A stretch of 64,000 bases of DNA from a phage: sequence record NC_101837.1; one strand, 5' to 3'. The position numbers and the translations under genes were made by a program. Positions within the stretch are counted from its first letter, which is position 1. Each line of letters starts with the position of its first letter. This document shows, piece by piece, positions 3,517 to 61,327 of this stretch. The notes below the pieces were generated by a model. That model was not told where the DNA came from, searched no databases, and worked only from the letters and a program-made list of their open reading frames with translations.

Positions 3517-4335
3517 TTGAGCAAGAAAGAGTCCAACGACAAATACTACACAAACCCTGAGTATGCAGAATATCTTGTTGGTAAAGTAAAAGATAAGTAT
3601 GGGAATTGTGCATACGTTGAGCCTTCTGCTGGAAGGGGTTCTTTTTCAAAACTATTTTCAGAGATACTGTCGTACGATTTAGTACCAGATCCTGAATTTG
3701 AAGGACCAACACCGTGCATTCAGGCAAACTTCTTGGAGGTGCATCCCAAGGCAGATGTCTTCATAGGTAACCCACCATTTGGCAAGAATTCATCCTTAGC
3801 TTGCAAATTCTTTAACCATTGTGCATCATTGCTAGAGCTTGGAGGGGCTATAGCCTTCATCTTGCCACGGACATTTGAAAAAATATTTTTTGCAAACAAA
3901 CTGGACATGTCGATGCACCTTGTCTACAGCGAAAGGTGCCCTAAGAATTCGTTTTTACTTAATGGCAAACCTTATGACGTGCCATGTGTTTTCCAAATTT
4001 GGGAGAAAAAGGCGTGCAATAGGGATCCTGTAGAGATTGGAGAGAATAAGTTATTTTCTTTTAGCACACCAGATGACTACGACTTCTGTGTAAGACGTGT
4101 TGGGTATAATGCTGGAAAAGTATTGGGGGATGATGACCCAAAATCTGAAGAATCAACATATTTCATAAAATCTTTAGTTGACGGTGTTGACAGAGTGTTT
4201 GCTGAATGCTATTCTTCTTTTCAAGAAGAAGCAGGTAAGACTGCTGGAATGAAGAGTATAGGTAAGAAAGAACTACAATACATTTTGGAGACCAGGTATG
4301 ATCAAAAGCATAGACTTGACCAAAGAACTTACTGA
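3517..4335 (+). CDS. DNA N6-adenine methyltransferase (gamma-class); start reassigned to in-frame TTG after GGAGG
   Basis: Motif X YYTNPEYA, motif I YVEPSAGRGSF, motif IV GNPPFG; the ORF-track start lies inside the upstream terminator. Confidence 0.6.
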   Translation: MSKKESNDKYYTNPEYAEYLVGKVKDKYGNCAYVEPSAGRGSFSKLFSEILSYDLVPDPEFEGPTPCIQANFLEVHPKADVFIGNPPFGKNSSLACKFFNHCASLLELGGAIAFILPRTFEKIFFANKLDMSMHLVYSERCPKNSFLLNGKPYDVPCVFQIWEKKACNRDPVEIGENKLFSFSTPDDYDFCVRRVGYNAGKVLGDDDPKSEESTYFIKSLVDGVDRVFAECYSSFQEEAGKTAGMKSIGKKELQYILETRYDQKHRLDQRTY

Positions 4336-4756
4336 TGCAAAAGCTTTTGGTGAGACAGCGGTACAAAGAGGACAGGCGATGGGACTGGCACTACCTTTCG
4401 TCTTAAAAGAGCACTTTACAGATTTTCAACTTATCAAAGGTGATAAGGGAATGCTTATCCTGGAGCATAAGTTGAGTAAGAAACGCTATAAAGTCGTTTT
4501 TAATTCTAAAGCTCCAACAAAACTGGGATTCAGAACTTACAATCTTAACCCATCCTACACTAAGGGTGTTGGAAGGGTAGAACAACAGCATTTCAGTGCC
4601 AGAGCTTCTTTAGCCCCTTTGATGCTAAATTTCTCAGGGGTGGCTTTAGGATACCTTGATAAGAAAAGGGTTCTTCATGTTCGTTTCACAGACTTTGTAA
4701 CGCTTTTAGCTAACAACGAGGTTGATGAGAAGGGACGTGTAAAAACAAACTTCTAA
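4298..4756 (+). CDS. hypothetical protein
   Basis: 152 aa ORF on coding strand of operon. Confidence 0.4.
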   Translation: MIKSIDLTKELTDAKAFGETAVQRGQAMGLALPFVLKEHFTDFQLIKGDKGMLILEHKLSKKRYKVVFNSKAPTKLGFRTYNLNPSYTKGVGRVEQQHFSARASLAPLMLNFSGVALGYLDKKRVLHVRFTDFVTLLANNEVDEKGRVKTNF

Positions 4757-4771
4757 TAACGCATAGTATGA

Positions 4772-4975
4772 TTGGAGACCGAAATGACACTAGAGTTAAC
4801 AATTCCAGACAGCTTTTCAGAAAACTTTATCCCAGAAATGATGAGTAAGATGCGATCATTGCTTGATCAGATTGAGGAGGCTGTTTGGGAAGACGATGCT
4901 GTAGTGGCTAACGAGCTGGTAGATAAGTGTAAAAGTATTATTGATGCAGTTGAAGAATACCACGGAGGTTTTTAA
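4772..4975 (+). CDS. hypothetical small acidic protein
   Basis: 67 aa ORF, stop overlaps next start. Confidence 0.4.
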   Translation: METEMTLELTIPDSFSENFIPEMMSKMRSLLDQIEEAVWEDDAVVANELVDKCKSIIDAVEEYHGGF

Positions 4976-5589
4976 TGGATATTATTGTTCTTAACGCCCC
5001 ACCCAGCAGTGGTAAGGATCACATTGCAGATCTCTTGTTGGAAGCTATTCCTAACTCACACCACCGTGAGGTTAAGGAAATGCTCTTCAGTGTGGCAATT
5101 AAGGCAGCTGGTGTAACTCCTCAACTCTGGAATGCACTTTATGACCGCCACTACAAAGAAGAGCCTTGCCCTTTCTTAATGATAGACGGCAAGCATGTTT
5201 CTCCGCGAGAATGGATGATCCATTGTAGTGAAGATCTGATTAAACCTATCTTTGGTGAAGATGCTTTCGGTAAAGCCGCAGTCGCATCTTTGAAGAAAGA
5301 TTTTCCTGAAAGTAAAGGGGTTATTGTTTACTCCGATGGTGGATTTAAAGAGGAGCTGGCATGCCTTAGCGAGTACGCATACAGCACAGGTGGAGATCTG
5401 TTGTTGTTCCGTATTCACCGTGTAGGATATGACTGGGGAAATGATTCCAGAACCTATCTAAGTCTGGAAAAGAACGGAATAAAAGGGGTTGAGTTTGATG
5501 TTGTAAACCCTGAAGGTGCACCTTGGGAGTGTGCATCGGAGATTGTGTGCAAGTATATTGATGCTAAAGAGGCCCAAGAAGAATGTTAA
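4975..5589 (+). CDS. deoxynucleoside monophosphate kinase-like P-loop protein
   Basis: N-terminus MDIIVLNAPPSSGKDHIADLL resembles phage dNMP kinase N-terminus (..SG..SGKD..AD). Confidence 0.5.
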   Translation: MDIIVLNAPPSSGKDHIADLLLEAIPNSHHREVKEMLFSVAIKAAGVTPQLWNALYDRHYKEEPCPFLMIDGKHVSPREWMIHCSEDLIKPIFGEDAFGKAAVASLKKDFPESKGVIVYSDGGFKEELACLSEYAYSTGGDLLLFRIHRVGYDWGNDSRTYLSLEKNGIKGVEFDVVNPEGAPWECASEIVCKYIDAKEAQEEC

Positions 5590-6176
5590 TCGGAATTGAT
5601 GTAGATTTGACACTGGTAGATTCAGGAACAGCATGGTGGGAGTGGTTGGAGCGTTTGTATGGTCCAGCCAGTAAGACAGTCGCTAAACCTTCTAACGGAC
5701 TGATGTATTACGATCTGTCAAAGTATTGGCCTGATCGCCCCAAAGAAAACATCATAGGGCCTTTTGATTTCTGGAGTGACCCGTTCCTTTACGACTTTCT
5801 TAAGCCTGAAGAGGGGGCTATTGAGGTTATGAAAGATTTGGTGGCTCGTGGTCACAAGCTTGCGTTTATCTCGGTATGCAAGAAAGGTCACCTTGCATCT
5901 AAATCAAGGTTCTTAAAGCGTTGGACCAGTGATTTTATGGATCTGGACGATCACACCCAGGGCCACGGATTCTACGCCACACATTTCAAAGGGAATGTGG
6001 CTGTAGATGTTATAATTGACGACAGGCATGAATACCTGAACCAATTCGCTTCACGACCTGAAGTTATTAAAATCCTAAAAGATACGCCTTATGAGCAATT
6101 CGAGGAGTTAAAGGTCAGTATTGACTATGCCGCTAATAGCTGGTATAAAATAGGAAAGTTTTTAGAAGGTATTTGA
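5583..6176 (+). CDS. HAD-family 5'(3')-deoxyribonucleotidase-like
   Basis: N-terminal HAD motif I GIDVDLTL (DxDxT). Confidence 0.5.
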   Translation: MLIGIDVDLTLVDSGTAWWEWLERLYGPASKTVAKPSNGLMYYDLSKYWPDRPKENIIGPFDFWSDPFLYDFLKPEEGAIEVMKDLVARGHKLAFISVCKKGHLASKSRFLKRWTSDFMDLDDHTQGHGFYATHFKGNVAVDVIIDDRHEYLNQFASRPEVIKILKDTPYEQFEELKVSIDYAANSWYKIGKFLEGI

Positions 6177-6177
6177 A

Positions 6178-6378
6178 ATGGGCAGATGTTCTAAAGGTGG
6201 CGATCCTGTAGTCAGATACGGAGACTGGCTAGAGGTATATAATCTGGAGGGAAAGCTAGTGTATGCTTCCAGGATCACCCAGGATATGTGCTCTGATATG
6301 TTTAACAGGTACCTTGCATTTAAGGCCAACATAAACCCAGACGAAATTTCCAAAATTAAAACAAGGAGAGCTAAATAA
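6178..6378 (+). CDS. hypothetical small protein
   Basis: 66 aa ORF tightly packed between neighbours. Confidence 0.35.
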   Translation: MGRCSKGGDPVVRYGDWLEVYNLEGKLVYASRITQDMCSDMFNRYLAFKANINPDEISKIKTRRAK

Positions 6379-7361: not shown

Positions 7362-7390
7362 TCCTATCACAGCGATAGGTAACTTTTGTG

Positions 7391-7419
7391 TTGACTAATA
7401 GTATTAGATAATCTATAAT
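7391..7419 (+). promoter_or_regulatory. sigma70-like promoter
   Basis: TTGACT-17 nt-TATAAT. Confidence 0.5.
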
Positions 7420-7459
7420 AATGGCTCACTTTGTTAGTGAGCCAGAAATGGAGACAGAT

Positions 7460-7921: not shown

Positions 7922-7931
7922 GGTGGTGAAG

Positions 7932-10474: not shown

Positions 10475-10480
10475 TTTTAA

Positions 10481-11604: not shown

Positions 11605-11883
11605 ATGAGCTGCGAAAAATCTTTTTTCATCATCATTTACGGTAAGGATAACTGCCCACATTGTGTCAGAGCAAAAGAATTTGCAATCAGCAAAGGTCTG
11701 CCTTTTGTATATAAGACACTTGGCGAGGGCTACACAAAAGAAGAGCTTATTGAGAAGTGTAGTCCAATCGTCCCCAGAACGTTGCCGCAGATCTTCTTAG
11801 AAAGCGATCTTGACAGTGTCCATATAGGCGGTGCAGACGATTTCATCTCTTTTGTTAAGAATGGTTTTGGAGAGAAAAAGTGA
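11605..11883 (+). CDS. glutaredoxin / NrdH-like redoxin
   Basis: CPHC active-site motif (YGKDNCPHCVRAKEF), 92 aa, between nrdB and nrdD. Confidence 0.7.
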   Translation: MSCEKSFFIIIYGKDNCPHCVRAKEFAISKGLPFVYKTLGEGYTKEELIEKCSPIVPRTLPQIFLESDLDSVHIGGADDFISFVKNGFGEKK

Positions 11884-12743
11884 AAGTTGTAAAACGGGAC
11901 GGTAGAGAAGAGTTTTATAACGGAATTAAGGTGATCAAGGCGGCAGAGTCCGCCTTACTTGAGTCTGGACATACTGAAGAAGAAGCTTACCGGATAGCTT
12001 GTGCAGTTAATGAAGTTGTTGCTAACAATCTACCAACCGACCAGTGCACGATCTCTGTAAAAAATATCCATATCCTTGTTGAAGATGCTCTTATGGATAT
12101 GGGTTTAAAATGTGCAGCCAGAGAATACATCCAGTATAGACAGACAAGAGATAATAACAGAGAGGCAGGTGGAAAACTGCTTGCAGATATTAGTGGCTTC
12201 TTGGATCGAACTTGTGATGAATTTACAAAAGAAAACGCAAATAAGCCTACTAATCATGTACACACTCATCGCGACCTGCTTGCAGGCATCCTTAGCAAAC
12301 ACCTTGCATCAACACAGATCCTGCCAGACCGTGTTTCAGAAGAGCACAATAAAGGCTTCATCCATGTGCATGATCTTGACTACTTGATCAGTCCGTTAAC
12401 AAACTGTTGTTTGGTAAATTATCCAGATATGTTGGAAAACGGATTCAACATTGGCAACGCCCATGTCAGTAAGCCGAAGTCAATAGGGGTTGCAACAACA
12501 ATCCTTAGTCAAATCTCTAGCGCGGTAGCTAGTGCTCAATATGGTGGTCAGACTATGAGCCATATTGATCATTATCTGGCACAGTATGCTGAAGCAACCT
12601 ATGAGAAGAACCTTAAATTTTGCCAGGAACATTGGTTGCCGGATGCTGAAACTGTTGCAATGCAAATGACAGATAAAGACGTGTTTGACAGCATGCAGAC
12701 GTTGCTTTATCAGATCAACACACTAACCTCGGTAAACGGTTAA
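11880..12743 (+). CDS. nrdD: anaerobic ribonucleotide reductase NrdD, exon 1 (3' boundary approximate)
   Basis: N-terminal ATP-cone (MKVVKRDGREEFYNGIKVIK); ORF terminates where structured non-coding RNA begins. Confidence 0.7.
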   Translation: MKVVKRDGREEFYNGIKVIKAAESALLESGHTEEEAYRIACAVNEVVANNLPTDQCTISVKNIHILVEDALMDMGLKCAAREYIQYRQTRDNNREAGGKLLADISGFLDRTCDEFTKENANKPTNHVHTHRDLLAGILSKHLASTQILPDRVSEEHNKGFIHVHDLDYLISPLTNCCLVNYPDMLENGFNIGNAHVSKPKSIGVATTILSQISSAVASAQYGGQTMSHIDHYLAQYAEATYEKNLKFCQEHWLPDAETVAMQMTDKDVFDSMQTLLYQINTLTSVNG

Positions 12744-13027: not shown

Positions 13028-14260
13028 TTGGACACTTCGGTCTTTGGTAGAATGATTACCAAAAATTACTTGAAAGTCCACAAAATGGGTCTTGGTGAAG
13101 AACGTATCACACCTGTGTTCCCTAAAGTGCTGTTCTTCCTGGAAGAGGGTGTCAACATGAACCCTGGGGATCCTAACTATGATTTGAAACGATTAGCTCT
13201 GGAATGCTGTGCAGAACGTATCTATCCTGACTTCGTATCTGTACCACTAAATAGAAAAGTGACAGGCTCGACAGATGGCAAAGTAACTAGCATGGGTTGC
13301 AGGAGTTTTCTTAGCAAATACAATGACTTGGAAACAGGCGAGGAGAAATACCTTGGCAGATTTAACTTAGGCGTTGTTAGCCTTAACCTGCCAATGATTG
13401 CGGCAAAAGCTAAGACGGAAGGTGTTGATTTCTTTGCAGTTCTTGACGAATACTTGGATCTTGCATATGAGGCTCACCTTGTAAGGGTTAACCGTCTAAA
13501 AGGAACAAAGGCAGGGCAGAACCCCATCATGTGGTGTGAAGGCGCTCTTGCTCGCCTGGATCCTGAAGAGAGTATTGATAAACTCTTCTATGACGGGTAC
13601 GCTTCCATCAGTATTGGGTATATTGGTGTGTATGAAACCTGTCAGATTTTGGGCAGAGAGGGTGACAAGGCTTTAGCTCTTGGAATCCTTCAGCACATGA
13701 GAGATGCTTGTGAGCGATACAAGAAGGAAAGTAGACTAGCATTTAGCTTGTACGGCACTCCTTCTGAGAGTCTATGCTATAAAGCTGCAACCTGTCTGGA
13801 TCGTGAATATCCGGAAGTGTTGAAGCACGAGCATGAATATCTCACCAACAGTTTCCATCAGCCAGTGTGGATAAATAGCTCTCCTTTTGATAAGTGGGAG
13901 TATGAGGAAGGTTTTGCTATGATCTCCTCTGGTGGCAACATTGGATACGTAGAGACACCTAACCTGAAAAACAACCTGGATGCTTTAGAGGCTCTTGTTG
14001 ACTTCGGGTATAAACATATTATGTATTTTGGTATTAACCAACCTGTGGATAAATGTCTCAAGTGTGGTTTCTCTGGTGAGTTCAGTGCAACAGCTAAAGG
14101 GTTCTGCTGCCCTGCGTGCGGATGCCACGATGAACAATATATCTCAGTGATCCGAAGAGTGTCTGGATATCTTTCCAGTCCTAACTCCCGTCCTTACAAT
14201 AAAGGTAAGCAAGCGGAAGTTATCGAGCGAGTTAAGCACTACGGAAGTTGTGGTTGCTGA
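13028..14260 (+). CDS. nrdD: anaerobic ribonucleotide reductase NrdD, exon 2 (5' boundary approximate)
   Basis: C-terminal Zn site CLKCG...CCPACGC and glycine-radical motif RRVSGYL; frame open upstream of the first ATG back to ~12986. Confidence 0.8.
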   Translation: MDTSVFGRMITKNYLKVHKMGLGEERITPVFPKVLFFLEEGVNMNPGDPNYDLKRLALECCAERIYPDFVSVPLNRKVTGSTDGKVTSMGCRSFLSKYNDLETGEEKYLGRFNLGVVSLNLPMIAAKAKTEGVDFFAVLDEYLDLAYEAHLVRVNRLKGTKAGQNPIMWCEGALARLDPEESIDKLFYDGYASISIGYIGVYETCQILGREGDKALALGILQHMRDACERYKKESRLAFSLYGTPSESLCYKAATCLDREYPEVLKHEHEYLTNSFHQPVWINSSPFDKWEYEEGFAMISSGGNIGYVETPNLKNNLDALEALVDFGYKHIMYFGINQPVDKCLKCGFSGEFSATAKGFCCPACGCHDEQYISVIRRVSGYLSSPNSRPYNKGKQAEVIERVKHYGSCGC

Positions 14261-14297: not shown

Positions 14298-15290
14298 ATG
14301 TTTAGGGAAGTTAGGAAACAAGAAATGGCTAAATTATCAACAGAAGAGTTTATAGAGAAGGCGAAAATCATTCACGGTTATAAATACGATTACACGAAAA
14401 CAGTGTACGTGGATTGCTATGCGAAGGTTTGCATTACCTGCCAAATCCATGGGGATTTTATGCAAGCACCTTGTAAACACTTGCAAGGTCGTGGTTGTCC
14501 TTTTTGTGCAAAACTTTCTCGTGCTGCAAAGTGTAATAAAGGTCTTAAATTTGTAGAAAGGGCCAAAGAAATCCATGGAGATAAATATGACTACTCTCTC
14601 GTATACTACAAGACTTGCAAAGACAGGGTAGAAATAATCTGCAACACTTGTGGAAATCACTTTACACAGACACCTGATAACCATATAAATTTGAAAAGAG
14701 GTTGTCCAGTTTGCAAGGGGTCAAGAATCTCACAAAGTAAAACATCACCACACGAAAAGTGGGTTGAGTCCATAAGAAGTAGAAATCCTTATGTTGAGAT
14801 ATTGGAAGAAATTATTGGGTGGGATAAGAAAGTCCTGTGCTGCTGTAAAGGTTGTAGCCACACATGGTTAACCGTACCAAGCAGTCTTAAGCAGGGACAT
14901 GCTTGCCCTAGATGCGCTAAAACAGGATTTTTATCACACGATAACGGAAAACTCTACATTATGGTTGATGATCCAGAAGTACCTACATTTATGAAAATAG
15001 GGGTCAGTCATAATGAAAGTAAGCGAAGAGACCAGATACTTAAAAGTGCACAAAGATCTAGAGCTGGTATCCGCGATCTTCACATAGTGAAAACGTTGGA
15101 AGGATCAACTGAAAACATGCTGGCTGTAGAAAAATCTATGCACAAAGCCTTCAGTAAATATAAAATAAACTTCCCTGTAAAATTTGATGGTAGTACCGAA
15201 TTCTTTAACTACAGACCTGAAGTGTTCAGTATGGTAGAATCAGCGCACAGAGAGATTTGTTGTAAACATAGGACAGGTAATAACCTGTAG
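14298..15290 (+). CDS. free-standing homing-endonuclease-like protein (T5orf172 / GIY-YIG superfamily C-terminal domain, repeated Cys/His N-terminal modules)
   Basis: Repeated HG(Y/D)KYDY...GCP(F/V)C modules; C-terminal LYIMVDDPE...KIGVS...STEFFNY resembles T5orf172 domain. Confidence 0.45.
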   Translation: MFREVRKQEMAKLSTEEFIEKAKIIHGYKYDYTKTVYVDCYAKVCITCQIHGDFMQAPCKHLQGRGCPFCAKLSRAAKCNKGLKFVERAKEIHGDKYDYSLVYYKTCKDRVEIICNTCGNHFTQTPDNHINLKRGCPVCKGSRISQSKTSPHEKWVESIRSRNPYVEILEEIIGWDKKVLCCCKGCSHTWLTVPSSLKQGHACPRCAKTGFLSHDNGKLYIMVDDPEVPTFMKIGVSHNESKRRDQILKSAQRSRAGIRDLHIVKTLEGSTENMLAVEKSMHKAFSKYKINFPVKFDGSTEFFNYRPEVFSMVESAHREICCKHRTGNNL

Positions 15291-18853: not shown

Positions 18854-19387
18854 ATGACTTGTGCTAGAAAACCTGATGAACAACGTAACGCCTACGATGA
18901 GTATGTGACACCGGAATGGTGTGCAGAAGGGCTGTATGACCTTATTCCGTTCCCAGAAGACTGGACCTACTTAGAGCCTTGCAGGAATAGTGCCTCAGGT
19001 GTGTTCTACTCCCGTATGCCGTTAGGATCTGCATGGGGAGAAATCCAAGAAGGTGTTGACTATCTGAATACAGAATACAACCATGTTGACTGTATTATCA
19101 CCAACCCGCCGTACAGCCTGGCTCGTGAGTTTGTGAACAAGGCGTTGAAAGATGCCGACGTAGTTATTATGCTTTTGCGTCTTAATTTTCTGGAAAGCAA
19201 AGCCAGATTTGAATGGTGGCTTGATAATGCACCTACTACTGTGATCACAATATCTAAGCGTCCATCATTTCAATCAAACGGCAGAACTGACGGGCAAGCA
19301 TATGCATATTTTGTGTGGGATAAGAAAAACCGTTTAGACTTGCCGCCGTTTATGTGGTTGGCACCCCCAGAGGTAGACCTGAAATGA
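18854..19387 (+). CDS. small DNA N6-adenine methyltransferase (phage Dam-like, gamma-class)
   Basis: EYVTPEW, YLEPCRNSASGVF (motif I), ITNPPYS (motif IV); 177 aa. Confidence 0.6.
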   Translation: MTCARKPDEQRNAYDEYVTPEWCAEGLYDLIPFPEDWTYLEPCRNSASGVFYSRMPLGSAWGEIQEGVDYLNTEYNHVDCIITNPPYSLAREFVNKALKDADVVIMLLRLNFLESKARFEWWLDNAPTTVITISKRPSFQSNGRTDGQAYAYFVWDKKNRLDLPPFMWLAPPEVDLK

Positions 19388-31019: not shown

Positions 31020-32549
31020 CACACAATTAGCTGCCCGGCTAAAGTGCTGGAAGCACCTATAACACATCTTTCAACTAAATTTCCTACCACCACAATCACT
31101 TACCTCCCACACATGACTGTTTGCTTGTTTAGTGAGCAGTCATGCCTTGACATTCTTGCCTATCTTGATAAAATTAAGTTCTTCTCTTTTCTTTTACCGA
31201 GTAATTCGGGTTTTCTGTTCTCTTCGGTTTGAAGGGGTATGGAGATACACCTGAGTGAACAGGGTGAACAACCGAACCTTTGGCTATGGCATTAGCATGG
31301 CGAAGCGGACGGGTGACGAAAGAGGGGCCGGAGGACACCAGTCACTGCCATATGATATATGGGTGATAACCTGAAGAGTCTGAATAAGTGTTTAAGTACC
31401 AGTCAGAGGAAAAGGTGAATGGTAGCCGAAGGGGGATGGGGGGTTTCTTGTATCTTTAATTTGTATATTATGTATACACTTGTAAACCAATCTCATCTGA
31501 ATCTGTTTACCACACAAAGCGGATAGAGACAAATATCACCTATTAAACTTGAATTATTTATAGAAAATACCACAACACCAATTAAGTCTTTGATTTTAAA
31601 CACAAATCCTACAGATATTCAACCTCCATATTTAACATACTCGTAACATATTCCATACTCTACCTGTCTGATCAATTTACCCAACTACATCCCCATATTT
31701 TCCCTGTCTGTACTACCCCATCCCCGCCGGGAGTCCCGTCATATCTGGCTTTCCAGCAAATATCACACCCACAAATATCATTGCCTGAAGAGGGTTTCAT
31801 CCCATAATACATGCCTTACATGAAGAGCGCTTCATACACCACGTAAATTTTTTAATTGACCTCCCCGCCGCCGGAGAGGTTGGCTTTTCCCCACACAGAC
31901 CTGAAGAGTCAGCCAGAAATATCTGAACAGGTCCAGTTCTGCCTTGTCATGAGCCGTAGCGACTGGAGTGCTGCCAGGCGGACGGAATGGGAATACTTCT
32001 CATTCTTATAATAATTCTCAAATATCGAGGCAGTGAGGCAAATTAATAGGTGAGGCCGTTCACACAGTGGCACAACATTTGCAATCTATTTTGTGGGGGT
32101 GAATGAGAATACCTATCATTGTGAGAACTGTTATCATTACGGGCAATTTAACATAATACCCATTATGCGCACCACTGGCGATCCATACAGGGATTGATAA
32201 CATGAGTTACAGTTTACGCATATAACAATCATATTTCTTACTATTTGTGTGGGATATAGTTAGCAGCCGATAGATTAGATATTGACCTGTGGACTTCCAA
32301 CCGTCTAGACGTCTAAACGCCCACACAACAAGGATTATACATACATTACTGAATGTAAACAGGGCCGCAAAAATGCTACCATACCAGTTTGTAAATTTTT
32401 CATGCAGCACTTGACAAAGAGAGGAAAAACTTGTCTGACATGCTGGGCATACTTCACACCTTAAACATACTCAACACTGGATACAATAACAATTGTTACT
32501 ATTGCATGCCTCACTGTTCACGTATAGACTATTTGCTCAAAAATGATAA

Positions 32550-32569
32550 GCCATGCCATTCGTTTGCAT
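32550..32569. repeat. 20-bp direct repeat, copy 1 (GCCATGCCATTCGTTTGCAT)
   Basis: Exact 20-mer repeated at 32822-32841. Confidence 0.7.
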
Positions 32570-32654
32570 GATAACAATAACGATCAACAACAATAAAGAC
32601 TGAAATGATAACGTTGTTGATTTGACTGACTAACAATTAACAGGCTAATAATCT

Positions 32655-32798
32655 ATGACATAATATAAAAGCAGGGCAACTATTAGCAGATCTATAGTTG
32701 CCTTGCTTGTTATGTCATGATTAACTAAATACAAGGCAACTATGATCTGATTAATAGTTTGCAGACAAACTATCACGGGGGTGATGGTTACTGCTTTT
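32655..32798. repeat. iteron-like cluster bracketed by an 18-bp inverted repeat
   Basis: ATGACATAATATAAAAGCAG ... CTGCTTTTATATTATGTC arms enclose at least 5 copies of GGCAACTAT / ATAGTT(T)GCC in both orientations. Confidence 0.65.
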
Positions 32799-32821
32799 AT
32801 ATTATGTCGCGACTCCGTCGC

Positions 32822-32841
32822 GCCATGCCATTCGTTTGCAT
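32822..32841. repeat. 20-bp direct repeat, copy 2
   Basis: Identical to 32550-32569; followed by a further ATAGTTGCC copy. Confidence 0.7.
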
Positions 32842-33502
32842 AGTTGCCTTATTGTTACAGATAAAATAATTGTATTGTTAATTATTTCTTATCTTTCTAT
32901 TAGTCATCTAATGATTCCAGTTAGTATAGTAACGTACAGTAAACATTAGACGACTAAAGATTTCTCTGATTATGATAACTTGCCGTGACAATTTCAGACT
33001 GTTTACGAAAAATGTTGACACCTGAGCTGATTTATGTTATGCAATTTAAACGAATAATTATTTTATGCAGGTATTGACTATTCTGTTATCCTATGGTCGG
33101 AATAAATACTTAGCAGGCTATAGAATGGTGAGCGTACGTAAATTCTGAGATCTGTCGGCTATAGTTATACTCGATTTTTCACGTAGAACACGCTTTTTGG
33201 TTTGTGTAAGTGTATGACTTATAAAGATTTTTAGTTGTTGACAAGATATTGAAGATGTGCATCAGGTTAAATTTTGTGCAATAGCTGCATTACGTGCAAT
33301 TTTGGAAGGAAAACGGGTAAAAATAGCACCGCTACCACACAATGAAAGGTTATGCAATAGTTATTTTACATGTATATTTGTACAGTGTGTGGGATTGATG
33401 GCTCGTCAATTATTCCACTTGCCAGGTAGGGCCGTTTATGGTAGGGAGGAAGAGCAGACAAAAAGAAAGGGACCTAAGCCCCTTGATAATTCAGTTAAAA
33501 AA

Positions 33503-53072: not shown

Positions 53073-55850
53073 TTAGTGACAATCACCCCAATTACGACCA
53101 CACAGGTATTCACCTGTGATCTGGAACGGGACGCCCATCATTTTAGAAGCTTGCCAGAAGCAATGCACCACCATTTCACCCACAGGGCTCCAGATAAGTT
53201 CAAGCTTTCCGTCATCGTTCAGGATAGGATCGTACACCGTGTTTCCGTCTCTGTCAACCACTTCGTTTCCGTCCTCATCCTTGCGTGCCTTTTTGTACTT
53301 ATGACCGTCGAACACATGAAGTTTGGCCTCCTGCTCTGCCTTAAATGCTTCCAGTTCTTCGATTGTGTCGAAGGTGTACACAGTCTTATACTTCGGTGTG
53401 TCAGGGACTTGAAGCTGATATTCGTCATGGTAATAGATAATACGACGAACACCTTCATCGTACCACCCACGCTTCACCATTTGATGGTGCATGAGTATCC
53501 CAACTAAGTCACACAACGATGCGCCGCCATTTTGTTGGTATGCATTAAGTAAAGAGTGTTTAGATCGGGTCCAGATAGCATGACCATCAAAAGAGTAGAT
53601 AAACTTCTTACCCGTTGCTTCCCAGAATTTCTCCAGATCTTCTTTACGCCCCTTAAGACCAGGGTTGGCATCCCAGAGTGCATCGATTACCCTTTGTCCC
53701 AACTCTGGAGAGATGTCCAGCATATCTGCAACTTTATCTTTTTGTGCCCCATACATAACCCCATACGTGATAGGTTTACCGTCGTTACGAGACACCTCTC
53801 TACCTGCTACTTTTGTATATGCCTCAGCATTGTTTTGGTGTGCGTCCCCGTTACTTACAACATCGTAATACAGGCCGTTGTCGAACTCAAAGGCACCCCA
53901 AGCCCCGATAAGCTGCTCTAAGTTGGACCCGTCAATACCGATCTCAAAGTATCCTGGAGGAACACCCCACAGACTACGCATCTCTTTACCCATAACCACT
54001 TTAGGAGATGGTTTAGGCATGTTTGCACAAATACTGTGTTTCTGTCGGGAAGTGTTTGTTAATCCAGAACTTTTAGCAGGAAGCTTATGGTCAATCTTCA
54101 AACGTGGGTGATTAAGAAGACCAGTATCAACCTTATCCTCCTTGATTGGATCAAGGACCGATCTGCGGTTTCGCAATGATAACCACAAGACGATATCTTT
54201 AGCCATCTCTCCGTTCAATTTTTCAAGATTCGGGCATAGGTGTCCAAACGTATCTTTCAGTTGCGGAGAAGTAATAAGTGCCCTAGCTTTTCTACGTATT
54301 TTCCCGAATACTTCCTTTTTAATCCTTTCGGAGTTAGGAAAGCTTCGGAACTTGTGCACGGTTGTCTGGAACTTAGCATCAGTTTTGTTCCAGAAGTTGA
54401 TAATTAGGTCACAATACTCTGACTCTAAAAGCTCGTCCATATATGCATACACTCGTGCATCAACATCTGCATCAGGTAGAGCTTTCTTCTTGCTGTCTTT
54501 AGTTACATCCTTAGTTCTCCACATTGTCGGAAGCCAACCAGCACTGATCAGGTATCGCTTAATATCGTCCTGATTGCTGATTTTCATAGGTATCTTGCAG
54601 TCAGGCATTCGCTTCTGCTGTAGATCACTTATTGCCTGATCCATTAGCTCTTTAGGTAAAGGTTGTGGTGTGGAGGTGCCCTTGATATAGCCCCTCAAGA
54701 AATCCGCCATCTTGTCAGGGTCTTTACAGCCCATCTCTTCACACCATTTTATCCCCATCTTACTGACATCTCCTGTGGAGGTAAATGCTCGCTTAGGAGG
54801 AGCTTTGAATTCTAAAGCACTCATGTCCACAGGGTAGCCAAGCTTGTCTTTTAACCATTTCCAACCATTATTGGAGATTGTCCCATCCTGGTTAAACGGC
54901 TTTTCAGGGAACTTAGGCCGCTGAGACATTGATAACTCTTTTAAAGGAAGTTGTGGTTCAACACGATCAGCGATCTCTTTCATCCACGCATCGCAGCGGT
55001 CACGTAAAGCAATAGCCCCATCTATGTCGAAATACACACCCTGTCGAGCCTGCAGCTCCATCAGGAAATGCTGCAGCATGCCTCGGCGTAATGCATTCTT
55101 CCAGGTAATCTTCTTGAATCCTTTAGGCTTCTCTTTGGCAGGGTCATACATAAAGTTCTGCATGTCAGATTTGCCGTAGAATACACCTTTTGATTCCGCT
55201 ACCAACTCTTTCCAGAGCAACTCCTGGATGATAACGTCCTCGAACACACGATCCACATATTTCCACAGCGGAAGATCGCGCCAGTCATCAATTTGAACTT
55301 TCTGGTTACCAAGGGCGTAGCCCCATGCCATAAGGCCGTGAGGACCAACAGGTTGCATTTTCTTAGTAACCGGGTTGAATACAGCGTCCGGACAACCTTT
55401 TGGTAAAGGGCGATCAGGCCACAAGATTCGGCTCATAGCCAACGTATCAAACAGGTTAACCTGGTGGTCGTTGATAGTCCCCATGCATTTAGGATCACGG
55501 AACATATCAAAATGAATACCGGATAATCTTTCCATTAGCATAAAGTCATAACTGTAGCAGTTATGGCAGTTCAAAGCTGTTGGTGACCAGTCAGAATTGC
55601 CTGTAAGCCAACCTTCCAACTCCGAAAAATCTGCTATGCGAACTTCAAAATCTTTATAAAGAGTTTTCTTTGCCAGAATGAAGTTCTTAGCCTTTTCTAT
55701 ATCCTCCTCGGAGTAGTGTGTGCGGTCATTTAGAGGAAGGAACAGCATAAAACGGTTCTTATTCAGCTCTTTAAACAGACCGCAGTGATAATAAAGATCT
55801 GGGTCTTCCAGCAAACCGGATGACTCAAAATCGAAAGACCACATACTCAT
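53073..55850 (-). CDS. family A DNA polymerase, T7 gp5-like
   Basis: 925 aa; motif B-like KPITYGVMYGAQ, motif C YYHDE, C-terminus GRNWGDCH resembling T7 gp5 terminus (recalled); AAGGAG RBS. Confidence 0.9.
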   Translation of the reverse strand: MSMWSFDFESSGLLEDPDLYYHCGLFKELNKNRFMLFLPLNDRTHYSEEDIEKAKNFILAKKTLYKDFEVRIADFSELEGWLTGNSDWSPTALNCHNCYSYDFMLMERLSGIHFDMFRDPKCMGTINDHQVNLFDTLAMSRILWPDRPLPKGCPDAVFNPVTKKMQPVGPHGLMAWGYALGNQKVQIDDWRDLPLWKYVDRVFEDVIIQELLWKELVAESKGVFYGKSDMQNFMYDPAKEKPKGFKKITWKNALRRGMLQHFLMELQARQGVYFDIDGAIALRDRCDAWMKEIADRVEPQLPLKELSMSQRPKFPEKPFNQDGTISNNGWKWLKDKLGYPVDMSALEFKAPPKRAFTSTGDVSKMGIKWCEEMGCKDPDKMADFLRGYIKGTSTPQPLPKELMDQAISDLQQKRMPDCKIPMKISNQDDIKRYLISAGWLPTMWRTKDVTKDSKKKALPDADVDARVYAYMDELLESEYCDLIINFWNKTDAKFQTTVHKFRSFPNSERIKKEVFGKIRRKARALITSPQLKDTFGHLCPNLEKLNGEMAKDIVLWLSLRNRRSVLDPIKEDKVDTGLLNHPRLKIDHKLPAKSSGLTNTSRQKHSICANMPKPSPKVVMGKEMRSLWGVPPGYFEIGIDGSNLEQLIGAWGAFEFDNGLYYDVVSNGDAHQNNAEAYTKVAGREVSRNDGKPITYGVMYGAQKDKVADMLDISPELGQRVIDALWDANPGLKGRKEDLEKFWEATGKKFIYSFDGHAIWTRSKHSLLNAYQQNGGASLCDLVGILMHHQMVKRGWYDEGVRRIIYYHDEYQLQVPDTPKYKTVYTFDTIEELEAFKAEQEAKLHVFDGHKYKKARKDEDGNEVVDRDGNTVYDPILNDDGKLELIWSPVGEMVVHCFWQASKMMGVPFQITGEYLCGRNWGDCH

Positions 55851-55908
55851 ATACAGTTCTCCTTAAAGGGGAGGCGGTTGTACTACCCCTCCCACTCTTT
55901 GTTAAACA

Positions 55909-57987
55909 TTAAAAAGGCGTTTCATCATCCTCAAAACCAGGGACCGGGTCAGAGGATGGATCATCGTACTGGAGGTCTTCCTGCGTGTCAACAGGCTTAA
56001 CAGTAGGAGTTACAACCTTATCAGCCACAACCTTGCCCATAGGTGTTTCTACAACTGCATGCTCCTGATCCTCAAACATAGCCTGAGGTCTCCAAACAAC
56101 CTCCCCACCTTCTCCATCTGTAAACATTTGCATTTCTTTGTCCCAGTACCAATTACTGGCATCATGGAACTTACCTGTGTGCGGGTCCATAACCAAAGTG
56201 TCAGCAATACCTAGAGTTTTTGCTGGACGGTTTTTAAGACCTACCAGACGGACACGTCCACGAGAACGATCCACCATTTCTTCGGCCTCGACACCTATGA
56301 CTACCCAACTCAACTGTTCAAGCCCCGCCGATCCTCGCAAATTCTCTTTTCGCACAGGATACCAGAAAGGTAACGGGTTACCATCCTTGTCCTTAGGAGG
56401 CACAATCTCTGTACGTTTGAGGTGAGCGATCACCAAGATAAACACGTTAAACTGCTTACAAAACGCAGCCAGTTGAGTCATAGCCATGTCCAGTTCTTTT
56501 CGCTCATCCTTAACATTAAGCCCTGAAATTACCATGGACAGGTGATCCAGCACAATATAACGGCAATGGTACAGGCAAACCATTTGCTTAAGCTTGGTAA
56601 TCAACTCGTCCACCGGAATAGATCCGAAATGTTTGAACACTTTGATTTTTCCAGCTTTTGCCCATGATTGGTGAATCTCTGCGTGTTCTTGATCAGTTAA
56701 AAACTGGCTAGGATCTTCAACAAACTCTTTAACATCAAACCCTAACTGGTTTGCATACAAGGAGTTAATTGCTTCCTCTGGGTCCTCCTCAAGATGGATC
56801 ATACATAGACGATCATCCTCTTCATAGTCATCAGCCTTCTGGCATGTCGGGTCCATTAGGTATCTTGCAATACAATGTTCCAGTTTTTTAGCTACAGTTG
56901 TTTTACCGCCCCCTGATGGCCCTGTAAGCATTACGAGTGTCCCTTTGTGCAAGCCTTTTAGCATTTTTTGCAGTTTTGGGAACTCTGCGCTGATATCTAC
57001 CCCGTTGGAAGTCTTTTTCCGCAAAGACTCGATAGAGAAGTCTTCTAAATCCGACACAGCATCAGGCACATATTTAACAGGGTGCCGGAACATGTTGACA
57101 ATATCTTCCAGCTTTTTAGCCTTCAGCATGTCACGGATATCTTTTACCCCGTCAGGGTCATTTACTTCACCAGGGTATTCTACGTGGTAAACGTTATCAG
57201 CCATCAAAAATGCTGCGATATTGTGCGTGGCCTCAACACCTTTAATGACGTGTTTTTGCTTCTCTACCTCGTTAGCTGCATCGTTATCCATTGCCAGCAC
57301 AACTGTTCCATAGCTACGGATAAACTTCTCATTGTTTGCAAAAGTATCCACTGCGTTTGCACATCCACAGTTAATTCCAACAAAAGGCAGGCAGGGTTTT
57401 CCTGCCAGATCACCACCGTTGATAACTGCGTCGATCCCGTCCTGGACCTCTTTAGCCCACTGCTTCACCTTTGCCGGGGCTTTAGCGTTGGTGAGAATCC
57501 CTTTTACTTGTATCTGATATGCAGCCTGCCATGCTGCAATAACATCACCTTCCCCCTCACAAACGTTAATCTGCTTACGGTTGTTGGAAGATGCACACAG
57601 CTTTTGACCAAACATCTGGGAGTTGGCCTTTACGATGCCAACAACGGAGAAGTGGCCCCTTTGTTCTTTAGGAATAGTCCAGTCACGCTTTTTGAAACCG
57701 GACAGATTTCCGTAGCGGTCGTAATATGGGAAATATGTTGCAGTGACTGTCACACCGTCTTCTTGTGACAATGCTGATCGCACACCAAAATATTGTGCAG
57801 CCATCAGACCGATATTTTGTTGTGGGACAGGGACAATTTTAGTATTTTCTAAAACAGTCTCTACAGTTTCAACTTCTTTTTCATCACGATAGTCTCGTTT
57901 CACACTTCCCCCACTTTTATACTTAGTTGCTTTCGGGTTTGGCTCACCGAAACGGTTGTATGCAGATGCCATAAATTTACTTCCCAT
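55909..57987 (-). CDS. bifunctional primase-helicase (TOPRIM + DnaB-like), T7 gp4-like
   Basis: TOPRIM CEGEGD and DNDAAN; Walker A LTGPSGGGKTT; 692 aa; AAGGAG RBS. Confidence 0.85.
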   Translation of the reverse strand: MGSKFMASAYNRFGEPNPKATKYKSGGSVKRDYRDEKEVETVETVLENTKIVPVPQQNIGLMAAQYFGVRSALSQEDGVTVTATYFPYYDRYGNLSGFKKRDWTIPKEQRGHFSVVGIVKANSQMFGQKLCASSNNRKQINVCEGEGDVIAAWQAAYQIQVKGILTNAKAPAKVKQWAKEVQDGIDAVINGGDLAGKPCLPFVGINCGCANAVDTFANNEKFIRSYGTVVLAMDNDAANEVEKQKHVIKGVEATHNIAAFLMADNVYHVEYPGEVNDPDGVKDIRDMLKAKKLEDIVNMFRHPVKYVPDAVSDLEDFSIESLRKKTSNGVDISAEFPKLQKMLKGLHKGTLVMLTGPSGGGKTTVAKKLEHCIARYLMDPTCQKADDYEEDDRLCMIHLEEDPEEAINSLYANQLGFDVKEFVEDPSQFLTDQEHAEIHQSWAKAGKIKVFKHFGSIPVDELITKLKQMVCLYHCRYIVLDHLSMVISGLNVKDERKELDMAMTQLAAFCKQFNVFILVIAHLKRTEIVPPKDKDGNPLPFWYPVRKENLRGSAGLEQLSWVVIGVEAEEMVDRSRGRVRLVGLKNRPAKTLGIADTLVMDPHTGKFHDASNWYWDKEMQMFTDGEGGEVVWRPQAMFEDQEHAVVETPMGKVVADKVVTPTVKPVDTQEDLQYDDPSSDPVPGFEDDETPF

Positions 57988-58741
57988 TAATTCTGCTCCT
58001 TACTACAGGCTCGTTTGCTAGGAATACGGCTTTTGCCCAGCCACGTGGTGTGAGGCTTCGAATCATCTTCGTTCTTGCACTCTTTCCACCCAGCTTGGCG
58101 TGTTGCATGGAATACCCGCTAACCGCGTCAACTATTTGCGGGACAGGTTTTGTGGCTGGGATTATAAATCCATTACCTATCCAGCCGCAAGTTATTTTTG
58201 GATAGGCATCACGTGGAGCTATAAATTCAGGAAACCATGGGTTTACATCATCTTCCGGTAAATACCCGCCATAATCCGAAGGGTGAAAACGGTAATCAGG
58301 TTTGCGCCACAGTGTGGACATAACACCCACAGGATTCTCTACATGCCACGGGCAATCGTAAATCTCTCCCATCTCTTCCGCAACCCGAGCATCCTTTACA
58401 GCATTAATTTGGATCATGGGGTCCTTAGCCAGCTTTTTCTTAAAATGTGCAGCACCTGATACCGCTAAATGCGTGCACGGAGGAAATGCAAGAATAAAAT
58501 CTGGAGCCGGATACATGCAAAAAGTTTCCTGAGGGAACCACGGGTCAATCCAATAGTCCACATAGTGAATGTTGGGATGATCGGTGATCACCTCTGCATA
58601 ACTGCCGTGATCAGCGCCTTCTGCATTAAAGCACAGGCACAGGTACCCAGCTTTTGCCCAGTCAATGACTGCACCACCAGACCCGTCAAATAGACTCCAC
58701 ACAACACCTTTGTGGTAGTGTTCTTTGTAGATAAATTTCAA
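57977..58741 (-). CDS. short C5-cytosine methyltransferase-like protein (motifs I, IV, VI present, no obvious target-recognition domain); start moved to TTG after AGGAG
   Basis: SLFDGSGG (motif I), AFPPCTHLAVSG (PC motif), VENPVG (ENV motif); ORF-track GTG start lies inside a terminator hairpin. Confidence 0.5.
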   Translation of the reverse strand: MKFIYKEHYHKGVVWSLFDGSGGAVIDWAKAGYLCLCFNAEGADHGSYAEVITDHPNIHYVDYWIDPWFPQETFCMYPAPDFILAFPPCTHLAVSGAAHFKKKLAKDPMIQINAVKDARVAEEMGEIYDCPWHVENPVGVMSTLWRKPDYRFHPSDYGGYLPEDDVNPWFPEFIAPRDAYPKITCGWIGNGFIIPATKPVPQIVDAVSGYSMQHAKLGGKSARTKMIRSLTPRGWAKAVFLANEPVVRSRINGK

Positions 58742-58760
58742 TTTGCTGTCTCCTAATGCA

Positions 58761-58788
58761 AAAAGCCCCACCCTTTCGGGCAGGGCCT
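58761..58788 (-). terminator. intrinsic terminator (minus strand), copy 2 of duplicated terminator
   Basis: Same CCCCACCCTTTCGGGCAGGGC core as 48040-48068, followed by T-run on minus strand. Confidence 0.55.
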
Positions 58789-58792
58789 AGTG

Positions 58793-59275
58793 TTAAACCC
58801 GGATACCTATTGTATACTCGGTGGATACCAATGTCAAATCTAAATTTAAAATTTCTTGCATCTCATAATATGCGTCCAGGGTTAGATACATTTCCCCATC
58901 CTTTTCTGCATACTTGTCCAAGTGCTTAAGGCATTTCGGATAACTATCGAGTGCAGCTTTCAGACACTCAAATTCTGTGCTGTTAATGAATCCTTCCATC
59001 TTAGCTACCCGTTCTGGAGTAACGATAGCACTGTAGTGAGATTTAGCTTCCTGAATGCAATGGGTCCAAGCATCAACTTTCTCTTCGAAAAGCCCGAAGA
59101 ACTTCTTTTTGGTGAGCTTCAGATTCTTTAAGTGCTTAAGCACTCGGTTGCCGATCACAGCCACATCACGAAACTTAAGGATCACTTTGTCGATATCCTC
59201 GCGGCCTATTTTCACAAAGCAAGCCTCGCACATTTCAGGAGTGGCATAGCCTACTTTCCACATAAAATCTGACAT
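58793..59275 (-). CDS. hypothetical protein
   Basis: 160 aa. Confidence 0.5.
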   Translation of the reverse strand: MSDFMWKVGYATPEMCEACFVKIGREDIDKVILKFRDVAVIGNRVLKHLKNLKLTKKKFFGLFEEKVDAWTHCIQEAKSHYSAIVTPERVAKMEGFINSTEFECLKAALDSYPKCLKHLDKYAEKDGEMYLTLDAYYEMQEILNLDLTLVSTEYTIGIRV

Positions 59276-59287
59276 AACACCCTCCCC

Positions 59288-59683
59288 TTATTCCTGAAAA
59301 GCAACGATATCATATGAACTTGCAGATGATCCTGGTGAAGAATGACTCCAGTCTAGGTCATCAGAGTAGTCAGCGTACTGTGCACCACTACGTAGTTTGT
59401 ATTTTACCCACTTACCTGGTGCAGGGTTTTCACCACCTTCCCATACTTCCCAGCCTTCTGGCAGGCCGTCCTGGGGGTAGTCATCCACCTCACTAATAAT
59501 CTTAGGGTTTGGCACCAAGATCCCTGCAGGCTCTTCCTTCCTGATAAGTGTCCACACAGCGTAGGTGTCTGAGCAGGCGCATGATAGCAAAGTATATCCA
59601 CTATTCAGAACTTCTGCAAGCTCTTTCTCAGCATCTTCCAACTTGGTTAAGTGGTATTGGACAATCTTCACATCTGTAATCAT
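59288..59683 (-). CDS. hypothetical acidic protein
   Basis: 131 aa. Confidence 0.5.
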   Translation of the reverse strand: MITDVKIVQYHLTKLEDAEKELAEVLNSGYTLLSCACSDTYAVWTLIRKEEPAGILVPNPKIISEVDDYPQDGLPEGWEVWEGGENPAPGKWVKYKLRSGAQYADYSDDLDWSHSSPGSSASSYDIVAFQE

Positions 59684-60027
59684 CAGAAACCTCCCACTTC
59701 TTCGGCAAATGCAGCTGCTGTCGTCGCTGCATCAAGATAGGACTCTAGTTCACGGGCTGCACGTTTGTAAATTGAGTGGCGCATATCGTTTGGCAGTTTG
59801 TGGAAGTCCACCTCTTCACCGTTGTGGTAAACATGCACATCAGTGATCTGTCTAAATCCATAATAGTCAACATCAGAATCACGACACTCTGGGTCTGGCA
59901 ACTGGACAACTGCCTGAGCTTCCACAGTGAACATATCGTCAAGTTCAAAATCGATTTCAAAAGTGTATGGTTTATAACGTTTCATCATTTGATTGTACTC
60001 TTTATTGATCAGACTTATCTTTCGCAA
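59683..60027 (-). CDS. hypothetical protein
   Basis: 114 aa. Confidence 0.5.
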   Translation of the reverse strand: MRKISLINKEYNQMMKRYKPYTFEIDFELDDMFTVEAQAVVQLPDPECRDSDVDYYGFRQITDVHVYHNGEEVDFHKLPNDMRHSIYKRAARELESYLDAATTAAAFAEEVGGF

Positions 60028-61327
60028 CTAAGGCCGGGGCAAGTTTGTAATAACGGAAGCCACCACCACCTTGCCAGTTTACAGACTTAGAAATACCACC
60101 TTGATCTTCGCCATCGATCACTTTTTCCAAGCGCGGAATAATATGGGTATGACAATGATCACCTAGCTCGATTGAGATCCAGCGTCTTTTCATCTTATGA
60201 GCTACAGCAGCAGTAGTTCCCGAACCACCGAATGAATCCAATACCAAATCGCCTTCTCGCGTGCACATTTCGAAAATCCGCTTCAAAAGCGCTTCTGGTT
60301 TTTTCCCATTTTTGAAACTAACGCCGCCTTCATTTGCTATTCCATTCCAACTAATGTCTGTCCAAACATCAGTTATTAGTTCCGCAGGTTGCATCTCACC
60401 GTCAATTTCCAAAAGCCTATTGGAGTAAAAGACCATTTGCCTACCATTTGCGATATAAAATCCTTCAACATCCTCATTTGGATGTACATAAACCTTATCC
60501 CTATCTTTCTTTGACTTCTCGATAGTTTCTTTTCTCTTTATTTTAGCACCACCACCAATTGCAACAGATTGAAATACACGTTCTGCATTATCAATTGCGA
60601 ATTGTGCTAATTCATCATCGAATGTATCAGGCAGTTTTTTCTTGGCTTCTTTTGCATCTTTATAGCCATTGGCCTTTGCAAACGCATCGGCAATACTGCA
60701 CCACGTCCAATTTTTATAATGGTCATCCGGGTTTAATAGGTATTTGTTATATCCTGTATCATACCCTTTAGGTATATAGATTTTGTTAAGCGGTTTCTGG
60801 GTGCGATCTTTTGCATATACAAGCAAAAAGTTTGCTGTGGAGAAAACTGTGGCTCCTGTTGCCTTAAATCCCGAAGGGGAATTTGTGGTCATCGATATGG
60901 TATTTAACTGATTTGCACGACCAAAAATCTCGTCCATCAAAACTTTTAAATACGCCATTTCGCAATCATCTAAGTGAACGAATATTACCCCATCATCACT
61001 TAGAAGATTACGAATTATTTCTAACCTATCCCTCATTAAGCCCAGCCAAATGGAATGCTCCAGGCTATCATCGTAATGCTCAAAAGCCCTCCCGGTATTG
61101 AATGGTGGGTCTATGTAAACACACTTCACTTTGCCTGCATACTCTTGCTCTAGCGCCTTCAATGCTAATAAGTTATCTCCAAAAATCAGTTTATTATCAA
61201 AAATATCGTTTTCGGTCACTTTCTGGCTGTGGTAAGATTTGCTAGAATCTTCTAACAAAATGTGTGGCTCTAACTTTTTGCGCTCGTTTTTACCTATCCA
61301 GGTAAGTTCTAATTTGGTTTTGCTCAT
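60002..61327 (-). CDS. orphan DNA methyltransferase, N4/N6 beta-class (Mod-like)
   Basis: N-terminal LTWIGK, motif IV VYIDPPFNTG, motif I DLVLDSFGGSGTTAAVA. Confidence 0.75.
   Translation of the reverse strand: MSKTKLELTWIGKNERKKLEPHILLEDSSKSYHSQKVTENDIFDNKLIFGDNLLALKALEQEYAGKVKCVYIDPPFNTGRAFEHYDDSLEHSIWLGLMRDRLEIIRNLLSDDGVIFVHLDDCEMAYLKVLMDEIFGRANQLNTISMTTNSPSGFKATGATVFSTANFLLVYAKDRTQKPLNKIYIPKGYDTGYNKYLLNPDDHYKNWTWCSIADAFAKANGYKDAKEAKKKLPDTFDDELAQFAIDNAERVFQSVAIGGGAKIKRKETIEKSKKDRDKVYVHPNEDVEGFYIANGRQMVFYSNRLLEIDGEMQPAELITDVWTDISWNGIANEGGVSFKNGKKPEALLKRIFEMCTREGDLVLDSFGGSGTTAAVAHKMKRRWISIELGDHCHTHIIPRLEKVIDGEDQGGISKSVNWQGGGGFRYYKLAPALVAKDKSDQ

Follow-up and report, generated by a model that had tools for sequence, protein, structure and literature searches.

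Why should one phage genome carry four genes for DNA methyltransferase (MTase)-like proteins, and is the one that lies beside its replisome genes a damaged copy or a complete enzyme? These questions are raised by a 64,000-nucleotide stretch of the phage record NC_101837.1 (hereafter "the window"), in which the gene beside the replisome, at 57977–58741 on the − strand, encodes a protein of 254 aa with motifs of C5-cytosine MTases. The explanation we favour, with a probability of roughly 0.7, is that an rV5-like phage carries four orphan MTases, three of them resembling amino-MTases and the fourth being a full-length compact C5 enzyme (phrog_757) of DNMT3-like architecture, and that these mark the phage DNA at a few motifs. 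In this reading the substrate would be DNA and the transferred group methyl, and the specificity and biological role would be those we infer below.

All four MTase-like open reading frames (ORFs) lie at the coordinates given by a first-pass annotation of the window and contain the motifs quoted there. A regular-expression scan of all window ORFs of at least 100 aa recovered [DNS]PP[YFWH] or xPC[QSTNDK] motifs in these four only:

3517–4335, + strand: gamma-class (TaqI/BseCI-like) N6-adenine MTase-like gene, compact, 272 aa, with motifs X (YYT), I (EPSAGRGSF) and IV (GNPPFG)
18854–19387, + strand: minimal gamma-type NPPY MTase gene, 177 aa, catalytic core alone, with TNPPYS; match to phrog_799 at 8e-67
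57977–58741, − strand: compact C5-cytosine MTase-fold gene, 254 aa, phrog_757, with FDGSGG, FPPC (Cys89) and ENP (Glu135)
60002–61327, − strand: orphan type III Mod-like beta-class N6/N4 MTase gene, 441 aa, with IDPPFNTG followed by FGGSGTT; PF01555

The three class assignments hold as well, namely gamma for the two NPP[FY] proteins (motif order X-I-IV), beta for the Mod-like protein (PF01555) and the C5 fold for the 254-aa protein (PC cysteine and glutamate). Nuclease partner genes adjoin none of the four, and as far as the flanking genes go they are for this reason orphans, as had been proposed.

The description of the 254-aa protein as truncated is not borne out by its family. The protein matches the phrog_757 "DNA methyltransferase" group at 5e-87, and its homologues form 3,543 clusters at 90% identity. 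At 50% identity there are 2,030 clusters with E ≤ 1e-3, and in the best 150 of these the proteins are nearly all 205–260 aa long and cover the whole profile; a length of 254 aa is the norm of this very large family. The rare longer members have no recognisable fused domain except for a single HNH. By tblastn the gene is found in 1,503 of 50,697 phage records (~3%), and its carriers include rV5-like, T1-like, Dhillonvirus and Klebsiella Webervirus-type phages as well as lambdoid prophages, with Escherichia, Klebsiella, Salmonella, Vibrio, Arthrobacter, Flavobacterium and Roseobacter as hosts. To our knowledge the family is smaller than any characterised C5 MTase. A reading of the ORF as a truncated pseudogene is rejected on the length statistics of the family together with its invariant catalytic residues.

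Conservation within the family was assessed in a set of 80 sequences reaching down to ~40% identity. All 80 share F86, P87, P88 and C89 as well as E135, N136 and P137, and they likewise share D178, Y180, K182, T184, W187 and, within the C-terminal stretch K225-x-I-R-S-x-T-P-R-G, the residues K225, I227, R228, S229, P232, R233 and G234, among others. Motif I (FDGSGG, residues 18–23) is conserved, with variation at Gly20. The catalytic residues that the first-pass annotation expected of a C5 MTase on alignment, the PC cysteine and the ENV-type glutamate, are thus present and invariant.

A single-sequence search of the PDB with the 254-aa protein returned only noise, so that a family profile was needed. 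The profile aligns over motifs I to IV with DNMT3B, M.HaeIII, M.HhaI and SpCmoX, and the cysteine falls on the catalytic cysteine each time (Cys89 on Cys81 of M.HhaI and on Cys98 of SpCmoX). The nearest solved folds are those of DNMT3B and other C5 MTases, and the C5-MTase fold is present. An AlphaFold2 (AF2) model of the protein, with a predicted local distance difference test score (pLDDT) of 86.6 and a predicted template modelling score (pTM) of 0.87, shows strands and helices alternating as expected. In this model Glu135 (ENP, motif VI) lies 46 residues past Cys89, where a predicted strand preceded by a long helix comes to its end; it is assigned to motif VI by position and topology, the sequence alignments ending before it.

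In the C-terminal part of the protein, the candidates by position for the motif VIII arginine are R177, conserved to 93%, and K182, which is invariant and stands just ahead of a strand at 184–189, neither with a significant alignment. Helices are predicted at 222–229 and 233–251, together with the invariant IRS-x-T-P-R-G; if R233 were to occupy the motif X position, the Gly-Asn would be missing there. Some 30 residues (~190–221) of lower pLDDT and variable length lie between the motif VIII-type strand and helix 222–229, and a separate target-recognition domain (TRD) between motifs VIII and IX is not present in the 254-aa protein. What is left of a TRD is this short loop. The earlier remark that there is "no room" for a TRD is not supported as an obstacle to DNA methylation. 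The DNMT3 catalytic domain (~285 aa in DNMT3B), the best structural match, has a TRD loop of comparable shortness and methylates DNA, and small size is for this reason no argument against DNA methylation.

The loop itself occurs in several versions in the related loci (L007–L085), among them "GYSxQH", "DNPGW" and a longer "DRKDPKKGxNFSPV" insert. In the window it corresponds to ~58079–58174 on the − strand, and unlike the loop the remainder of the protein is nearly invariant. The loop versions may correspond to different target motifs. A likeness of "CLWTGNGF" and "PRGW" to "YFWGNLPG" and "GRSW" of DNMT3A was seen by eye; it is not statistically supported and is not used as evidence here.

The C5-like gene does stand beside replisome genes, as first described, and two further features belong to its surroundings:

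55909–57987, − strand: primase/helicase gene with its ATG at 57987, overlapping the stop of the C5 gene by 11 nt
58750–58837, − strand: region upstream of the C5 gene with promoter, hairpin and ribosome-binding site (RBS), all of them consensus matches only

A DNA polymerase gene comes next after the primase/helicase gene. The 11-nt overlap suggests translational coupling, and this context fits an enzyme that marks DNA during replication. In a survey of 79 related viral loci the C5 gene likewise stands among replication and recombination genes. Its commonest neighbour, directly upstream in 32 of the 79, encodes a 179-aa Dam-like NPPY MTase (e.g., L017, 8477–9016); SNF2 helicase, single-stranded DNA-binding protein, Erf-type recombinase and NinG-like proteins are other neighbours. 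No gene that might supply a recognition subunit lies beside the C5 gene in all 79 loci. As a pair, the Dam-like and C5 genes recur in T1-like and lambdoid phages, where they form a two-MTase cassette; the window has its small NPP[FY] genes elsewhere, and three small ORFs of unknown function separate the C5 gene from the Mod-like gene.

The C5 gene starts at TTG 58741, with an AGGAG RBS at 58754–58750. An alternative GTG start at 58771 sits within a terminator-like hairpin, and use of the longer, GTG-initiated ORF is unlikely. This hairpin (58788–58763, − strand, 11 base pairs and a T-run) directly follows a sigma-70-like promoter (58837–58809, − strand, TTGACA-17-TACAAT, 11 of 12 positions), a consensus match inside the end of the upstream gene, and it precedes the RBS of the C5 gene. 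Together, promoter, hairpin and RBS could make up a 5' leader through which the C5, primase/helicase and polymerase genes are regulated.

Under the reading that we favour, the C5 enzyme would be made together with the primase/helicase and the polymerase and would act on replicating phage DNA. Cys89 would attack C6 of a flipped-out cytosine, the methyl group would pass from S-adenosylmethionine (SAM) to C5 of the cytosine, and beta-elimination would then free the enzyme. Because its recognition element is so small, the enzyme probably reads a very short motif. Jointly, the four enzymes would mark the phage DNA at a few specific motifs.

For the gene at 60002–61327 the type III Mod-like class is unambiguous. 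The protein matches PF01555 over residues 67–393 (3.8e-42, 145 bits against a cutoff of 26.7) and phrog_67 (4e-63), and in the PDB it matches a Mod subunit (6k0w, 1.3e-28) and EcoP15I Mod (4zcf, 2e-24), with both ends covered. Its motifs follow the beta order, with IDPPFNTG (motif IV), then ~160 aa in the position of the TRD and then DSFGGSGTT (motif I). A Res gene is not found beside it, the neighbours being a Dda-like helicase of 456 aa and small proteins without known function. Directly downstream lies a 114-aa ORF (59683–60027, − strand), whose main match is phrog_4240 (unknown function) and which has a weak match to phrog_1573 "DNA methyltransferase" (E 1.4e-5); its small product might assist the Mod-like enzyme as an accessory protein.

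Both NPP[FY] proteins are placed in the gamma class on the basis of family profiles and structure, and both contain motifs in the gamma order X-I-IV (in the 272-aa protein YYT...EPSAGRG...GNPPFG). For the 272-aa gene the ATG start at 3517 is backed by homologues and RefSeq; the mechanical ORF opens at TTG 3487. The family of this protein (A2, ~260 aa) conserves YYT, EPSAG-G, GNPPFG and further motifs. Its AF2 model (pLDDT 91.5) aligns structurally with the gamma-class enzymes BseCI, MmeI, CamA and TaqI over 228–251 of 272 residues, compared with ~150 for RNA enzymes. The C-terminal ~100 residues are what lengthens these alignments, and because of this difference in span the C-terminal domain resembles that of DNA enzymes, although theirs is far larger. 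Homologues of the 272-aa protein have a precomputed PF26055 assignment, which a Pfam scan of the same homologues did not recover.

The family of the 177-aa protein (A3, 160–227 aa) matches 543 phage records. Its profile finds M.TaqI best in the PDB (2.2e-5), across motifs X-I-IV, with YVTP ... LEPC ... TNPPYS aligned to M.TaqI residues 21–111. A separate recognition domain is absent from this protein even more plainly than from the C5-like one, a point missed by the first-pass annotation. Pfam thresholds are passed by neither NPP[FY] protein: Eco57I reaches 15.5 bits against 25.3 and, for the 177-aa protein, EcoRI_methylase reaches 20.2 against 26.4 and Dam 19.8 against 28.1.

Several observations weigh against the reading of four DNA-marking enzymes and have to be considered together. 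The 254-aa protein has no Pfam or NCBIfam match at E ≤ 0.1, including PF00145; a close family member reaches E 0.0067 and 16.3 bits with PF00145, below the cutoff of 22, and a few members have precomputed PF00145 matches. A profile of the C-terminal 80 residues retrieved no C5 MTase and no motif IX/X match from the PDB, and a global alignment (hhalign) of the family with M.HhaI and SpCmoX likewise gave nothing meaningful over the full length. Since the C-terminal half thus has no significant match to solved C5 MTases, the motif VIII arginine and the motif X residue are not assignable. The rRNA MTase ErmC' is the second PDB match of the 177-aa family (3.8e-4). In the searchable literature we found no experimental report of methylation by any of the four enzymes, only annotation-level statements, and no test of the compact C5 family's activity or specificity. 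Lastly, Maffei et al. (2021) plated the BASEL phages on hosts with systems of types I, II and III, two of each, and found the Vequintavirinae exceptionally sensitive, with no detectable protection against these six restriction–modification systems.

The second-best match to ErmC' leads to an alternative for the NPP[FY] proteins, in which one or both would be RNA adenine MTases producing N6-methyladenine in rRNA or tRNA and not DNA MTases at all. Several homologues are labelled "predicted RNA methylase", one of them matches the RrnaAD Pfam family, and the 177-aa protein has no separate DNA-recognition domain. We nevertheless consider this unlikely, given the much longer structural alignments of the 272-aa protein with DNA enzymes, the position of M.TaqI at the top of the matches of the 177-aa family, and the PHROG and GenBank labels, which name both proteins DNA MTases, albeit as annotations only.

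For the C5-fold protein the alternatives concern the transferred group, the substrate and its self-sufficiency. It may be asked whether the enzyme transfers a group other than methyl, e.g., carboxymethyl from carboxy-S-adenosylmethionine (carboxy-SAM, Cx-SAM) made by host CmoA, which would yield 5-carboxymethylcytosine in coliphage DNA. Such chemistry is known from CmoX, a phage DNA cytosine C5-carboxymethyltransferase (PDB 8yf3; Yang et al. 2025, PMC12783734), which is marked by an "SPPC" motif IV and by an arginine (SpCmoX R350) that takes the place of HhaI Asn304 in motif X and binds the carboxyl of Cx-SAM (PMC12783734). Motif IV of the compact family is FPPC and not SPPC, so that Pro-Pro-Cys is common to both, and besides this invariant FPPC the family has an invariant Pro-Arg-Gly where the last helix begins, by topology the site of motif X. 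The correspondence of R233 to SpCmoX R350 is, however, without a significant alignment. Pro-Pro-Cys is found in ordinary MTases such as M.HaeIII too, and an arginine in motif X is not diagnostic, because DNMT3A has "GRSW" there and uses SAM. E. coli makes carboxy-SAM, and a coliphage would need no cmoA of its own; yet the family is also present in phages of Arthrobacter, Flavobacterium and Roseobacter, and tblastn with SpCmoA and SpCmoY produced no match in the window nor, in the 79 viral loci, at up to 10 kb from the C5 gene. We therefore regard a non-methyl product as improbable. The same holds for a bolder proposal, which we put forward as a long shot: at 205–260 aa, phrog_757 would be the smallest enzyme known to modify DNA cytosine at C5 on its own, would read a 2–3-base motif via its DNMT3-like loop and in enterobacterial hosts might use carboxy-SAM through the invariant Pro-Arg-Gly. 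If true, ~1,500 of the 50,697 phage records would have an unnoticed 5-carboxymethylcytosine or another non-methyl C5 adduct. Very improbable, in our estimate, is a target other than duplex DNA, be it RNA (as for DNMT2 and tRNA) or the free nucleotides deoxycytidine monophosphate (dCMP) and triphosphate (dCTP). DNA MTases outscore DNMT2, the gene resides in DNA replication and recombination modules, often paired with the Dam-like DNA MTase, and many lysines and arginines are invariant in the C-terminal half. Action on nucleotides such as free dCMP had been suggested by the first-pass annotation, and nothing was found in its support; the dCMP-methylating and dCMP-hydroxymethylating enzymes known to us have the thymidylate-synthase fold and not the C5-MTase fold. 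It is just as hard to picture the protein as inactive on its own, either as a regulatory or partner subunit (compare DNMT3L) or as the large piece of an enzyme split in two (compare M.AquI). The very small size of the protein and the three small ORFs between the C5 and Mod-like genes would agree with this, but the catalytic cysteine, the glutamate and the SAM motif are invariant (80/80), which argues for a working active site, the 79 loci have no neighbour gene in common, and the C-terminal helices in the AF2 model complete the cofactor pocket.

We thus return to four orphan enzymes that would mark the phage DNA at few motifs, and to the benefit this may bring. The broad anti-restriction self-modification proposed in the first-pass annotation is not supported and conflicts with the published plating, in which the Vequintavirinae were so sensitive to the restriction systems tested; protection by the four enzymes would concern particular restriction systems at most and would not amount to a broad shield. 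The compact C5 gene is also carried by T1-like phages, and for these too Maffei et al. (2021) saw no simple link between MTase genes and restriction resistance. GC-rich six-base palindromes are strongly avoided: CCGCGG, CTCGAG and GGCGCC are each absent from the window, where 4–7 would be expected, and CGATCG and TGGCCA occur once each (8.8 and 7.4 expected), while GATC (344 occurrences, 333 expected) and CCWGG are as frequent as expected. This suggests that avoidance of restriction sites contributes to restriction evasion, alongside methylation.

The finding of four MTase genes is in itself of little weight, as the genes are annotated and the published plating speaks against broad restriction evasion. 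It is the compact C5 family that is of wider interest: its product and motif would explain a common item of phage annotation. They would also inform predictions of host range in phage therapy, since 5-methylcytosine attracts type IV restriction, and the family might yield a very small cytosine-modifying tool enzyme.

The window comes from the genome of an rV5-like Vequintavirus, a well-known type of E. coli phage. Over a compared 7-kb stretch that holds two of the four MTase genes it is 99.8% identical to the Escherichia phage slur16 (Vequintavirus), and ~120 further rV5-like phages of the genus show at least 90% identity to the same stretch. All four genes are conserved and already known features of this well-sampled genus, annotated in RefSeq and GenBank. 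In slur16 the RefSeq labels of the four ORFs read "SAM-dependent methyltransferase", "DNA methyltransferase", "DNA methyltransferase" and "methyltransferase". In rV5 two of the four genes carry an MTase annotation, and the rV5 record DQ832317 labels the 272-aa protein "putative DNA N6-adenine methyltransferase". The 254-aa protein is called "Dcm-like C5 cytosine methyltransferase" in BASEL phages and "DNA cytosine methyltransferase" by NCBI in many E. coli assemblies; the BASEL phage Bas51 (WalterGehring) has all four genes. Dozens of GenBank records (MG0656xx) of "Campylobacter phage", with Campylobacter jejuni given as host, share 98–99% identity with rV5-like phages of E. coli over the four MTase genes (window 3517–4335, 18854–19387 and 55000–62000); this host label looks doubtful, and contamination or mislabelling is possible.

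Two other regions of the window deserve mention. The anaerobic ribonucleotide reductase gene nrdD consists of two ORFs separated by a gap of 284 bp, the one (11880–12743) with the ATP-cone and NRDD profile positions 1–154, the other (13028–14260) with positions 172–562 and the glycyl-radical domain. Inside this gap slur16 has an HNH endonuclease gene, which the window does not have there, and an Rfam scan of the window detected no group I intron at the split nrdD. Between nrdD and nrdG the window has an ORF (14298–15290) with DUF4379 that is T5orf172 endonuclease-like. The second region is an ORF-poor stretch of ~2.3 kb (~31350–33250) that separates the gene block of the + strand from that of the − strand. 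It includes a cluster of inverted and direct repeats at 32550–32860, e.g., AAGCAGGGCAACTAT / ATAGTTGCCTTGCTT, with a perfect 20-nt direct repeat whose copies are 272 nt apart. The tRNA and Rfam scans of the window found nothing, here included. This stretch could serve as a replication origin or hold divergent early promoters.

Compared with known systems, the compact C5 protein is closest in architecture to the catalytic domain of DNMT3A and DNMT3B. The identity is only 12–15%, and the regulatory PWWP and ADD domains of these enzymes are absent from the phage protein; the likeness is one of architecture and not a claim of descent. M.HhaI and M.HaeIII (PF00145) are larger (~327–330 aa against 254 aa) and possess a TRD of ~80–100 residues between motifs VIII and IX, where the phage protein has its ~30-residue loop instead. 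CmoX, with 372 aa, likewise has a full TRD, and its gene usually stands beside cmoA and an amide ligase gene, whereas the compact C5 gene is near neither. The two NPP[FY] proteins share with M.TaqI, M.BseCI and CamA the X-I-IV order with NPPY/F, and the 272-aa protein aligns structurally with these enzymes over 228–239 residues. At 272 and 177 aa, however, the phage proteins fall well below their 421–585 aa, and the large C-terminal domain with which these enzymes recognise DNA is shortened in the 272-aa protein and missing from the 177-aa one. Finally, the Mod-like protein resembles the type III Mod subunits (EcoP15I Mod; 4zcf, 6k0w) in its PF01555 domain and in having DPPF ahead of FxGxG, and differs from them in its length of 441 aa against 618–644 aa and in a gene that is not adjoined by Res.

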